Of a DNA stretch of 64,000 nt, positions 19,553 through 22,414 are shown piece after piece (the stretch's first letter is position 1; each line of letters opens with the position of its first letter). The position numbers and the translations under genes are program-made. Source of the stretch: Candidatus Heimdallarchaeum endolithica (GTDB taxonomy: Archaea > Asgardarchaeota > Heimdallarchaeia > Heimdallarchaeales > Heimdallarchaeaceae); assembly GCA_021513715.1 (NCBI GenBank), contig CP084167.1, positions 512,001 through 576,000 of the forward strand, written 5' to 3'. The notes below the pieces were generated by a model that saw only the letters and a program-made list of their open reading frames with translations, was not told the origin of the DNA and did not search any database.

Positions 19553-20431
19553 GTGTCAAAAATGAATGATAAGAAAAAAAATGAAAAAAAAAGATACTTA
19601 AGATTAAAAAATCTGAAAGAGTTTGGCGTAGATGTAACTTGGGAAAATCTTTTTTCTAAAACAGTTTTATTTGCTGGAGTAGGAGGAGTAGGAAGTATAG
19701 CTGCTGAAATGCTAGCTCGATGTGGAATAGGTAAAATGATTTTAATAGATTTAGACATTGTAGAAGAAGTGAATTTGAATAGACTATTTTATACCCAAGA
19801 GAATATAGGGAAACCAAAAGTAGAAGTAGCAAAAGAGATTTTGACCAAAATTAATAGAGACGTGGAAATTGAAACTTATCATTCTGACATTTGTGCAATA
19901 GATTTTGAAGAAAAATTTGAACAGTTAATAAAAGAGTCGGATTTAGTAATTTCAAGTTTGGACAATGTTCCTGCAAGATTATTCATTAATGAGAAGTGTG
20001 TCCAACTAAGAAAAGAATATATTGATTCTGGAGCTAGTAGGTCAGGATTAGGAGGATATGTTCATCTAGTTATTCCATATAAAACAGCATGCTATCAATG
20101 TACAGGTTCAATAGATTTAGGTGAAAAAAAACACGGAGAGCCATGCTCTGCTTCTCTACCTACAACAATTGCTATTATCGCTTCATTGACAGTAGAAATT
20201 ACACTCAAATATTTATTAAACTTTGGTGTAATTCCAGACTATATCGGTTTTAACGCCTTAACTGACCAATATATCCTGCAAAAAATGAACAGAGATCCTT
20301 TGTGTTATATATGCGGAGAAAGAAAAATAAGTTTAAAAGAACAGAAAAAATCATTACAAAAGATAGATAAATTAACAGAGGGAAAAACTGTTGACGAGTT
20401 AATTCAAAATTTGGTTTCGCAGGAAAAATAG
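19553..20431 (+). CDS. uba5: UBA5-like UFM1-activating enzyme (E1, ThiF/MoeB fold)
   Basis: GVGGVGS..AEMLARCGIGK, NLNRLFY, Zn ligands CYQC/CYIC, catalytic C-S-A-S-L-P-T-T (human UBA5 CAASLPTT), LKYLLNFG (human LKFLLNFG), YIGFNA (human YLGYNA). Comparison is with the human sequence recalled from memory. Confidence 0.88.
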   Translation: MSKMNDKKKNEKKRYLRLKNLKEFGVDVTWENLFSKTVLFAGVGGVGSIAAEMLARCGIGKMILIDLDIVEEVNLNRLFYTQENIGKPKVEVAKEILTKINRDVEIETYHSDICAIDFEEKFEQLIKESDLVISSLDNVPARLFINEKCVQLRKEYIDSGASRSGLGGYVHLVIPYKTACYQCTGSIDLGEKKHGEPCSASLPTTIAIIASLTVEITLKYLLNFGVIPDYIGFNALTDQYILQKMNRDPLCYICGERKISLKEQKKSLQKIDKLTEGKTVDELIQNLVSQEK

Positions 20432-20458
20432 AATATCTCAAAAAAAGTGGTTTAAAAA

Positions 20459-21514
20459 GTGGTAAAAATGGTTAAAGTTCAAATTCCTAAACATATTTTT
20501 AAGGCAATTGAAAAACATGCTATTGAATTCAAAGGAAGAGAGATTTATGGATGGTTATTGGGTTATGATGATGGAATTAATTTGAAAGTTATTGCAAGTG
20601 TTCCTTGCAAAATGTATAAAATTCAAAATGAAGTAAGAGCAGAACCATCCACAGAAGAAGCTTTTGAAATTGTAAAAAATATTCCCAAAGGAATAGGAAT
20701 TATAGGTATTTATCATAGTCATCCAAACAAAGTTTATCACAGTGTTACTGATGATTTGACAGTTAAACAATATGCTAATATGTATCCACATTTTTTAAGT
20801 ATAGTAACAAATGGAAAAGAAACTAAATCATTCCAACTGATAGGTAATGATGTTGAACCCATAACTGCAGATGAGTTAAAAGAAGAGACCTTAAAGAAAC
20901 TTTCTTTTAAGTTACATTTAAAATATTATTATGCAGAAGAAGAACTGTCACTAGCTTACATTTCATCAGAGATAAGAGAATTCTTAGAAAAAGAAGTTTC
21001 AAATTTGAAACTGGTGATTAACGGTAGAGAAATTAAAGAAAAGGAAAAGATAGATTCTCTAACAAAATCTTTAATAGAGATAAAGTTGAACAATACAGAC
21101 GTCAACTATGCTGAAGAGAGAAAGAGCGTTTTATTCAATTTTAATTTTGATATGGTTTCTCCACCAAAAAGAATAATTGCAGATTTAAAACCTCTATTAT
21201 TTAATGGAATTAAAGACTCGATGTATTATTATATAAAAAACATAAAAATCGCTAATACCTTTAAACTTCCATATGAATTTAAATTTGAAATTTCTAATAT
21301 TCCTTGGAGATTTAATGTTAAAAAAGAAACATGGGCTCTTATTCAGTTTTTTGATATTTTTGCATTTAGAATTCAGTTTATGTCATTTAAAAATGAGAGA
21401 AAAAGAAACAAAATTCATTCAGAAATAACTAAAATCAAAGAACTTTTAGAAAAAGACAAATCAGCTATTGAGAAAATTGATTTATTATTAGAAGAACTAA
21501 CGAAAAAGATTTAA
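20459..21514 (+). CDS. JAB/MPN+ (JAMM) metallo-isopeptidase with C-terminal extension
   Basis: REIYGWLLG (catalytic Glu) and IIGIYHSHPNKVYHSVTDD (HxH-x6-S-x2-D) at 20714. Confidence 0.85.
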   Translation: MVKMVKVQIPKHIFKAIEKHAIEFKGREIYGWLLGYDDGINLKVIASVPCKMYKIQNEVRAEPSTEEAFEIVKNIPKGIGIIGIYHSHPNKVYHSVTDDLTVKQYANMYPHFLSIVTNGKETKSFQLIGNDVEPITADELKEETLKKLSFKLHLKYYYAEEELSLAYISSEIREFLEKEVSNLKLVINGREIKEKEKIDSLTKSLIEIKLNNTDVNYAEERKSVLFNFNFDMVSPPKRIIADLKPLLFNGIKDSMYYYIKNIKIANTFKLPYEFKFEISNIPWRFNVKKETWALIQFFDIFAFRIQFMSFKNERKRNKIHSEITKIKELLEKDKSAIEKIDLLLEELTKKI

Positions 21515-21553
21515 AAATAAAAAAGTTATAAGAAGAACAATGGGGATAAAAAA

Positions 21554-21820
21554 ATGGAACCTTTAAAGAGATTATATTTTACAACAATAGTAGGAACAGA
21601 ACACAAACAAATACCATTTGAAACTCCAGGAAGTATAATTTTCCACGAGTTAATTGTTGAAGTTTCAAAAAAGTTTGGTATATCAACTGAACAAATAGCA
21701 ATAAGTAGTGAAATGGGTGAAACTCTAACAGTTTCAGATTTTCAGTCTACTGTAGATGAGATAATAAGAAAATATGGAACAGCTTTTCAAGTAATAAATA
21801 GAGGAGTAGTAGGTTTATAG
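21554..21820 (+). CDS. ufm1: UFM1-like ubiquitin-fold modifier precursor
   Basis: 88 aa. Aligns by eye with human UFM1 (P.S..F...., F.I......I....G, T...I..KYG....I.R..VG). Ends R-G-V-V-G-L: a single Gly after Val plus a 1-residue extension. RBS-like GGGGA upstream. Confidence 0.8.
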   Translation: MEPLKRLYFTTIVGTEHKQIPFETPGSIIFHELIVEVSKKFGISTEQIAISSEMGETLTVSDFQSTVDEIIRKYGTAFQVINRGVVGL

Positions 21821-21829
21821 TTCAGATAA

Positions 21830-22414
21830 TCGGGGGTTCTAAAGATTAGAGACGGAGATACTTCAACAGTAAAAGGAAGATGGAGAGAAACTCCTGCAGA
21901 AAAAGAATTAGTAAAGTTTCCTGAAGCTCTAATAAATATTACTCCAAAGCATCCTAAATGGACAGAAAGAGTAAAAATAGAGATTCTAAACTTAGCAAAA
22001 TATGTTCAGTTTTTACAGAGAAAAGGAGGACATAGTTGGTTCTTTTTAACGCCTAGTAAAGATCCAAAATACAATTTTATGAAGTGGGAAGGATATCTAC
22101 AAGTAGCTACAAGACCTGAAATTAGATTTAAAATAGTAATTCTTTTACCAGGAAACTATCCTAAATCTTGTCCTAGAGCTTTTATTGAAGAAAGAGTAGT
22201 AGAATATGCTGGAAAGATCTATACCAAGAATGTATGGGAAGAACCAAATGGAGAAAATTTTTTGATGATATGCCATGATCACATGAGTGAAATAGATAAC
22301 ATTTGGGACCCAAGGTTAACGATAGCACACTTTTTCATAAGAGAAGTATTCTATTGGTGGGCTGCACAACAGAACTTAATAATTGAGCACTATGATAGAG
22401 AAAAAAATAAATAA
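21830..22414 (+). CDS. ufc1: UFC1-like UFM1-conjugating enzyme (E2); true start upstream of the ORF-track start 22079
   Basis: Frame open 21830-22414. Contains PKWTERVKIEILNLAKYVQF...SWFFL (human LWVQRLKEEYQSLIRYVE...DWFRL), KWEG, LPGNYPKSCP (IPITYPTTAP), AGKIY (TAKMY), catalytic MICHDH (KICLTDH), PRLTIAH (PKFGLAH). Exact start uncertain; ATT at 21845 is a candidate. Confidence 0.83.
   Translation, partial: SGVLKIRDGDTSTVKGRWRETPAEKELVKFPEALINITPKHPKWTERVKIEILNLAKYVQFLQRKGGHSWFFLTPSKDPKYNFMKWEGYLQVATRPEIRFKIVILLPGNYPKSCPRAFIEERVVEYAGKIYTKNVWEEPNGENFLMICHDHMSEIDNIWDPRLTIAHFFIREVFYWWAAQQNLIIEHYDREKNK

Follow-up and report, generated by a model that had tools for sequence, protein, structure and literature searches.

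The eukaryotic UFMylation pathway comprises the modifier UFM1, its E1 UBA5, its E2 UFC1, an E3 complex of UFL1, DDRGK1 and CDK5RAP3, and the cysteine proteases UFSP1 and UFSP2. Picchianti et al. placed UFM1 and UFC1 in eukaryotes only, with UBA5 in diverse prokaryotes (and probably of bacterial origin) and UFL1 and DDRGK1 in Asgard archaea, and they picture the pathway as a mosaic, with some parts bacterial and others Asgard (PMC10183829). Koestlbacher et al. (2026) reported Ufm1 in nine Asgard clades and in no other prokaryote, in a main text that is silent on UFC1, UBA5 and an operon (PMC12962969), and literature searches, which did not cover subscription papers and supplements, found no paper on an archaeal or Asgard UFM1-type operon. 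Here we describe four co-oriented genes on the + strand at positions 19553-22414 of a 64,000-nt stretch of DNA (the window; positions 512,001-576,000 of contig CP084167.1, assembly GCA_021513715.1) from the Asgard archaeon Candidatus Heimdallarchaeum endolithica, encoding in order a UBA5-like E1, a JAB protease, a UFM1-like modifier (the tag) and a UFC1-like E2 (Table 1). That these four parts share one prokaryotic operon was the core proposal of an initial annotation, and it is borne out by sequence, fold, tree and synteny, as is the tight spacing which that annotation described (gaps of 27-36 nt from E1 to JAB, 39 nt from JAB to tag and 24 nt from tag to E2, the last figure requiring a non-canonical E2 start). 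Three of the parts, the E1, the E2 and the tag, each independently have a member of the UFM1 pathway as best match, and we are reasonably confident that the operon encodes a dedicated archaeal cascade for UFM1-type conjugation, which is a homologue of the eukaryotic UFMylation core and stands apart from the ubiquitin and SAMP systems of this genome.

Other prokaryotic systems resemble this locus in outline. The ubiquitin operon of Caldiarchaeum subterraneum and Asgard archaea (ubiquitin, E1, E2, RING E3 and Rpn11; PMC6043591) is also an archaeal operon in which a JAMM protease trims the tag precursor, but its tag, E1 and E2 are of the ubiquitin lineage, there is no RING gene here, and the host has its ubiquitin system separately: elsewhere in the genome lie ubiquitin, its E1, three canonical E2s, SAMP/MoaD-like proteins ending in Gly-Gly, a second JAB and another ThiF-family E1. 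The canonical ubiquitin (L129:1474-2791, genome positions 1707416-1708733) carries one residue after its Gly-Gly and lies next to the gene for its E1 and to winged-helix (Vps25/EAP30-like) genes. Bacterial BilABCD/Bub systems have the same four parts (ubiquitin-like protein, E2, JAB and E1) and no E3, but these appear to be of other families: the tag and E2 found here had no match in PADLOC (2023 library), where the E1 and JAB gave generic matches only, and fold scores were far lower (the Bub E2 reached a VIA Z of 8.3 with the modelled E2, compared to 15.7 for UFC1). The archaeal SAMP/UbaA/desampylase (HvJAMM1) system shares a ThiF-type E1 and a JAMM protease, but SAMPs have a Gly-Gly end and work without an E2, and the E1 found here scored 87.7 bits against the UbaA model (cut-off 450) and the JAB 21 bits against the desampylase model (cut-off 130); with a Val-Gly tag and an E2 present as well, the locus is not of the SAMP/MoaD type.

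The best match of the E1 in the Protein Data Bank (PDB) was human UBA5 (1.1e-52 over residues 11-273), compared to 1.3e-24 for MoeB, and it scored well below the cut-offs of the NCBIfam MoeB, ThiF and UbaA models. The motifs CSASLPTT, LKYLLNFG and YIGFNA, picked out at the start as diagnostic, are all present and aligned with human UBA5; Cys198, in C-x-A-S-L-P-T-T inside the adenylation domain, is invariant in 29/29 homologues, and a UBA5-type N-terminal extension is found on the archaeal E1. In a tree of 62 sequences, whose eukaryotic labels rest on motifs and one named member, the Asgard operon E1s formed one clade (98/99) and eukaryotic UBA5 another (100/100), and these joined a third archaeal clade, from Thermoplasmata, at 92/84, apart from MoeB-like and ubiquitin-type E1s. 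Membership of the UBA5 clade is thereby supported and a grouping with MoeB, ThiF or UbaA is not, while the sister position to eukaryotic UBA5, for which a test had been proposed, is taken in the best tree by the Thermoplasmata E1s and not by those of Asgard archaea. The bacterial UBA5-like proteins of Picchianti et al. were not identified among the E1 sequences gathered. At the end of the E1, a motif akin to the UFC1-binding helix of UBA5 (residues 381-404) was found by a loose pattern in 23 of the 29 Asgard E1s, and eukaryotic UBA5 tails finish with comparable D-L-M motifs; by analogy, this tail helix would probably recruit the E2. A further archaeal E1 clade (P0151, P0160, P0179, P0180 and P0191; L107:6001-6822 and L108:6001-6789) branches beside the UBA5 clade and has small unannotated genes downstream, possibly a further ubiquitin-like system. 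Within the eukaryotic clade there is also a short UBA5 (L106:8001-8855) on an intron-free contig with RabGAP-TBC, peptidase C1 and Pho88 genes, which probably comes from a giant virus or a compact eukaryote.

The E2 scored 26.1 bits against the Pfam UFC1 model (cut-off 25) compared to 15 bits against the generic UQ_con model (cut-off 27), and among its homologues the UFC1 model matched 32/34 and UQ_con 1/34. All top matches of the E2 among PDB sequences were UFC1, and its predicted structure (mean predicted local distance difference test score, pLDDT, 91.7) gave a VIA Z of 15.7 to UFC1 (root mean square deviation, rmsd, 2.8 with 150 residues aligned) compared to 8.5 for the next E2, with UFC1 filling Foldseek ranks 1-29, which places it outside the generic E2s. 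The catalytic Cys143, in M-I-C-H, is conserved in 33/34 homologues (the exception being a SIR2-TPR fusion) and aligns with the cysteine of Thermoplasmata E2s, itself aligned to that of human UFC1; the cysteine codons named beforehand for the E1 (20144) and E2 (22271) are both TGC. No HPN motif was found among the 34 homologues. The UFC1-type N-terminal helix, W..R.K.E...L..YV, is present as described, in a segment that aligns to UFC1 from residue 4-7. A "TAK-like AGK" had also been proposed, and its letters are there; in human UFC1, however, TAK (T106-K108) lies 10-8 residues before C116 and is needed for discharge of UFC1 (PMC12032130), whereas A-G-K here precedes C143 by 21-19 residues, with a predicted hairpin in between, so that the Lys is 19 residues ahead of the Cys rather than 8, and the Thr is not conserved. 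The family consensus is C-G-K, and its nearly invariant G and K may have the same role as TAK.

The E2 reading frame is open from 21830 and its first ATG, GTG or TTG lies at 22079, 258 nt past the modifier and beyond the N-terminal helix, which is included only if translation starts at an upstream ATT. A start at ATG 22079 was rejected as it would drop 78 conserved residues, and read-through from tag to E2 in the same frame was rejected because two different stops lie between them. The genome has the usual anti-Shine-Dalgarno sequence, with G-rich motifs peaking 7-9 nt upstream of starts genome-wide, and a GGGGGT stands at this typical spacing ahead of the in-frame ATT. The same arrangement, GG(A/G)GG followed by an in-frame ATT or ATA, was found in 6/6 family members examined, 5 of which lack a canonical start upstream, and the nearest canonical start downstream in these members falls at codon 16-79, within conserved sequence; the combination is expected by chance at about 0.002 per junction, in relatives that are not independent. 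The E2 is therefore probably initiated at AUU or AUA, here at ATT 21845, as judged from these junctions; it would then be scarce, and its gene clipped by gene callers. In Loki-type relatives the E2 start is mostly an NTGA overlap with the tag stop. Partly because of the non-canonical E2 start and of tag-E2 fusions (below), the operon was missed by annotation.

The tag precursor ends R-G-V-V-G-L-stop, so the modifier does not end in Val-Gly as first described but in Val-Gly-Leu, and trimming would be needed. Its predicted structure (pLDDT 90.6) had UFM1 at Foldseek ranks 1-8 (rmsd 1.2-2.9; template modelling score 0.86 compared to 0.69 for ubiquitin); the top 50 of a wide VIA search consisted entirely of other ubiquitin-like domains, but when VIA was rerun on the Foldseek matches UFM1 came first, at Z 14.3 compared to 11.1 for the best non-UFM1 ubiquitin-like domain. 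The proposed search with the Pfam Ufm1 model gave 13.8 bits for the tag, below the cut-off of 27 (E < 0.1 in 4/32 tag family members), and neither the tag nor a profile of the Asgard tags had a significant match in the PDB, so the UFM1 assignment holds by fold and not by that model. V86 and G87 are invariant in 32/32 homologues. Eighteen of the 32 Asgard tags end at the Val-Gly, 5 have 1-3 extra residues and 9 are in-frame fusions to the E2 (one of them, L047, read as a fusion by eye), the fused state changing about 4 times (bootstrap range 3-5) on a poorly resolved E2 tree. With such repeated fusion and extra residues, a protease cutting after the Val-Gly would have been needed repeatedly.

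For that role the JAB protein is the candidate, for deconjugation as well as maturation. It scored 34.2 bits against Pfam Prok-JAB and 30.4 against JAB, both above cut-off, and its metal site is intact, with E25, H83, H85, S92 and D95 invariant in 29/29 homologues; the loop from His to Ser has 6 or 8 residues, compared to 7 in the motif E-xn-H-x-H-x7-S-x2-D. Its C-terminal domain had no match in the ESM Atlas. A complex predicted for JAB with zinc and the tag scored 0.88, with 0.59 for the best of 3 controls, passing a mark reached by 58/80 solved complexes and 2/110 mismatched pairs (counts that hold only roughly for this case); agreement of contacts between runs was at least 93%, with a partner pLDDT of at least 89. 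Tag residues 79-88 lie at E25, H83, H85, S92 and D95 in this model, which supports binding, and tag residues 51-57 touch the JAB C-terminal domain at 161-170 and 242-257, suggesting that this domain is an exosite for the tag.

Beyond this genome, where all four genes are single-copy, an E2 match was found in 36/400 Asgard genomes (9/90 good genomes) of several families, with named records labelled Heimdallarchaeia, Promethearchaeia (Lokiarchaeum ossiferum), Sigynarchaeum and Hermodarchaeota. The 36 loci had a tag in 32, a JAB in 30 and an E1 in 29, in several gene orders, and several of those with less than a full set are short contigs or E2 fragments. In this survey, of the kind that the initial annotation suggested, the four-gene cluster recurs across Asgard families to an extent that exceeds chance, and it is present in the cultured L. 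ossiferum B35. In two Loki-type loci (L037 and L043), 1.7-2.5 kb of other sequence separates E1 from JAB, and in L037 also JAB from tag. A 102-codon piece of an E2 nearly matching the Loki-type ones was seen in a Patescibacteria-labelled bin (L099:5980-6285) with no partner genes, and is probably mis-binned, or a relic. A eukaryotic or chimeric source of the window is excluded because it sits within a single 3.33-Mb contig of even GC content and gene order is identical in Ca. Heimdallarchaeum aukensis PM71, a member of the same genus with a complete genome and the closest relative that the searches found.

Tracing the unexpected Thermoplasmata branch of the E1 tree led to operons in the order tag, UFC1, UBA5, JAB (loci L104, L105 and L110-L124), found in 23/79 genomes of one order and in 1/401 of a phylum-wide sample. 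Their tag and E2 profiles matched the Asgard profiles at 93.9% and 98.5% respectively, their JAB matched the Asgard JAB profile in 15/16 loci, and 15/15 tags read end in Val-Gly; one locus, L105, has no recognisable tag gene at the usual place. The neighbours of these operons are housekeeping genes. The tags of Koestlbacher et al. are very likely of the same family as the one described here, but the main text of that paper gives a tag alone and none in other prokaryotes, compared to the related tag found here in Thermoplasmata (PMC12962969).

Set beside eukaryotic UFMylation, the operon shares the UBA5 active-site motif and N-terminal extension of the E1, probably also an E2-binding tail helix, the fold and N-terminal helix of UFC1, and the fold, Val-Gly end and short precursor of UFM1. 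It differs in being one operon, in having a JAMM metalloprotease instead of the cysteine UFSPs and no E3 complex in the cluster, in an E2 hairpin inserted before the Cys, in the tag-E2 fusions of archaeal relatives and in the absence of the uL24 acceptor lysines. The ribosomal protein uL24 had been put forward as a substrate and is an unlikely one: the last Lys of the archaeal protein (L125:1336-1860, minus strand) is K124, after which come 50 acidic residues without any Lys, and the acceptor stretch of vertebrate uL24/RPL26 (K132/K134) aligns with acidic residues, so the eukaryotic acceptor site is not there. This acidic 50-residue C-terminal extension is missing from the archaeal uL24 chains listed for comparison. 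The operon resembles the UFM1 core but falls short of full membership in the eukaryotic pathway, having no UFM1-interacting sequence, TAK, E3 in the cluster, detected UFSP or RPL26 site.

Several observations weigh against a working UFM1-type cascade. The sequence similarity of tag to UFM1 is by itself not significant, the tag has no equivalent of R81, the E2 has no recognisable TAK at human spacing, and its start codon is putative. The UFM1-interacting sequence of UBA5 (residues 338-346; PMC10952357) is absent from the E1, which has 39 residues after its last zinc-binding Cys and no such motif among them. No E3, DDRGK1 or UFSP gene lies within the four-gene operon, so that "complete", as the initial annotation called it, is too strong a word, and DDRGK1 was not found in a search of the genome (92.6% complete by markers); UFSP (C78) had no match there either, in a weak test whose control likewise gave no match anywhere. 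An unlinked 251-aa winged-helix protein with a UFL1 domain (L103:1279-2031, genome positions 2186042-2186797), weakly over cut-off at 29 bits and adjoining an RPA-like gene, is a candidate E3 or may be unrelated. Only about 10% of Asgard genomes have the system (9/90 good ones). Finally, as JAMM-ubiquitin complexes have been solved, for example CsRpn11-CsUb (PMC6043591), the passing score of the JAB-tag model may partly reflect likeness to them.

What is directly established is the homology of E1, E2 and tag, the intact catalytic residues and the conserved linkage; the reactions and substrate that follow are what we infer. JAB would bind the tag by its catalytic and C-terminal domains, as in the complex model, and cut after Gly87, removing the Leu or, in relatives whose gene architecture requires it, releasing the tag from tag-E2 fusions. 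By homology, the UBA5-like E1, probably as a dimer, would adenylate Gly87 with ATP and form a thioester on Cys198, and the tag would then move to Cys143 of the E2, which the tail helix of the E1 probably recruits. In the least certain step, the E2, alone or with the unlinked UFL1-like protein, may put the tag on lysines of proteins, from which JAB may remove it again. A fuller account, to which we give an even chance, is that this self-contained four-protein archaeal cascade predates eukaryotes, with a JAMM protease bearing a tag-binding extra domain that matures the tag, cuts tag-E2 polyproteins and removes the tag, and with conjugation to lysines without UFL1-DDRGK1, and that an archaeon passed this core on to eukaryotes, where UFSPs, E3 and a ribosomal target were later additions.

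That inheritance is to be weighed against gene transfer into archaea or Asgard archaea, either from eukaryotes or by exchange between Thermoplasmata and Asgard, which would mean that the operon does not reflect the state of the eukaryotic ancestor. The pairing of Thermoplasmata E1s with eukaryotic UBA5 as sister groups (96/89 in the best tree), the UFC1 score of a Thermoplasmata E2 (43.5 bits compared to 26 for the E2 described here), the disjunct distribution and the bacterial source of UBA5 argued by Picchianti et al. (PMC10183829) would all fit transfer, but the archaeal E1s lie outside the eukaryotic clade (100/100), those of Asgard form one deep clade (98/99) over Heimdall-, Hod-, Loki-, Sigyn- and other lineages, and a topology joining Asgard and eukaryotes was not rejected (approximately unbiased test, p 0.44), both long stems being liable to attract. 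Moreover, the unlinked genes of eukaryotes could not in one step have given rise to operons that share a JAB family across two archaeal phyla, and we regard transfer as unlikely. A pre-eukaryotic archaeal origin of the core is thus likely, with the donor lineage to eukaryotes perhaps on the Thermoplasmata or the Asgard side; of the proposed ancestral system predating eukaryotes, the archaeal, pre-eukaryotic part is likely to stand, and Asgard ancestry is not established because the Thermoplasmata operon is no more distant from eukaryotic UBA5 than the Asgard one.

The same enzymes and chemistry might instead serve antiviral defence as in bacterial Bil/Bub systems, with the tag put on virus proteins. 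The make-up of four genes is that of BilABCD, the spread is patchy (among 400 Asgard genomes and in Thermoplasmata, as above), one relative is part of a fusion protein with SIR2 and TPR domains, and an IS6-like element lies 1.2 kb upstream; this reading is nonetheless distinctly improbable to us, given the PADLOC and Bub E2 results above, conserved neighbours that are Vps22-like and SPFH genes here and housekeeping genes in Thermoplasmata, the nearly always single copy per genome and the highly conserved sequence. There is a small chance that the cascade goes no further than the thioester, or that the tag ends up on something other than a protein (as a sulfur carrier like Urm1/ThiS, or on a lipid) or on the E2 itself only, which would suit an operon without E3, TAK or an R81 equivalent and the TAK-independent route of UFC1 self-modification (PMC12032130). 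Sulfur transfer, however, requires neither an E2 nor an isopeptidase, no rhodanese, thiamine or molybdopterin genes were seen beside the cluster, the genome has separate MoaD/SAMP-like Gly-Gly proteins and another ThiF-family E1, and Thermoplasmata retain JAB though all the tags read there are already mature, which points to deconjugation. That the local copy is decaying or misassembled, and the E2 not made, is very improbable: the E2 has lost its ATG (ATG to ATCG compared to H. aukensis) and the tag stop is shifted by one codon, both within a 20-nt junction with several substitutions and a one-base difference in length relative to H. aukensis, but four other genomes of the family are also without a canonical start and retain the Shine-Dalgarno and ATT or ATA, the E2 and tag are 95% and 97% identical to those of H. 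aukensis with no stops, and the ubiquitin of this genome likewise has one extra end residue. A UFM1-type protein conjugation cascade is therefore the reading that we prefer. A linked archaeal set of E1, E2, tag and protease overturns the statement that UFC1 is confined to eukaryotes (PMC10183829), and the core of a pathway thought mostly eukaryote-specific would exist in archaea, as an inherited unit rather than a mosaic and in a form that could be rebuilt from four proteins, in which to ask what UFM1 did before the endoplasmic reticulum and the RPL26 site existed.

Table 1. Positions of the operon genes and of linked features in the window.
Feature	Position	Strand	Details
UBA5-like E1, ThiF-fold adenylation domain, 289-292 aa	19553..20431	+	start GTG 19553 or ATG 19562; catalytic Cys codon 20144-20146
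Acidic amphipathic C-terminal E1 motif V-D-E-L-I-Q-N-L, resembling the UFC1-binding sequence at the UBA5 end	20390..20413	+	loose pattern
JAB/JAMM zinc isopeptidase, 348-351 aa (JAB/JAMM part at residues ~1-130, then a C-terminal domain of 215 aa that belongs to no known family)	20459..21514	+	likely start ATG 20468
UFM1-like modifier, 88-aa precursor	21554..21820	+	Gly87 codon 21812-21814, then one Leu; fold match
Shine-Dalgarno candidate GGGGGT (21832-21837) with the putative E2 start at a non-canonical ATT (21845-21847)	21832..21847	+	inferred
UFC1-like E2, 189 aa from ATT	21845..22414	+	catalytic Cys143 codon 22271-22273; Pfam, fold
EAP30/Vps22-like winged-helix protein, linked neighbour	22595..23629	+	Pfam EAP30 36.1 bits; profile matches SNF8 (5e-8)
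SPFH/Band 7 protein, linked neighbour that forms a pair with the EAP30-like gene	23639..24286	+	Pfam Band_7 45.8 bits

Downstream of the operon, the EAP30/Vps22-like and SPFH genes each lie inside the fetched flanks of 23/36 Asgard loci, and this linkage suggests membrane-protein quality control or remodelling as the Asgard setting of the system. A 180-nt AT-rich gap with a T-tract separates the E2 from the EAP30-like gene, which is probably on a separate transcript and is absent from the Thermoplasmata loci read. That this neighbour is a hidden UFL1 or DDRGK1 was considered and found unsupported, its profile matching SNF8/Vps22 only. A scan with a bacterial-type promoter model, in this archaeal host, found no excess of promoters. 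Upstream, an IS6-like transposase (17653-18351) is followed by a PAS histidine kinase (18429-19478), whose linkage to the operon is confined to this genus. The SIR2-TPR relative mentioned above is an 867-aa protein of a Promethearchaeota genome (G152; L050:8834-11524, minus strand), in which a SIR2_2 domain, TPR repeats and a UFC1-like domain are followed by a terminal UFM1-like domain; its UFC1-like catalytic Cys is replaced by Ser and its UFM1-like end has no terminal Gly, so that it looks like a sensor or defence protein in which inactive UFM parts have been reused.

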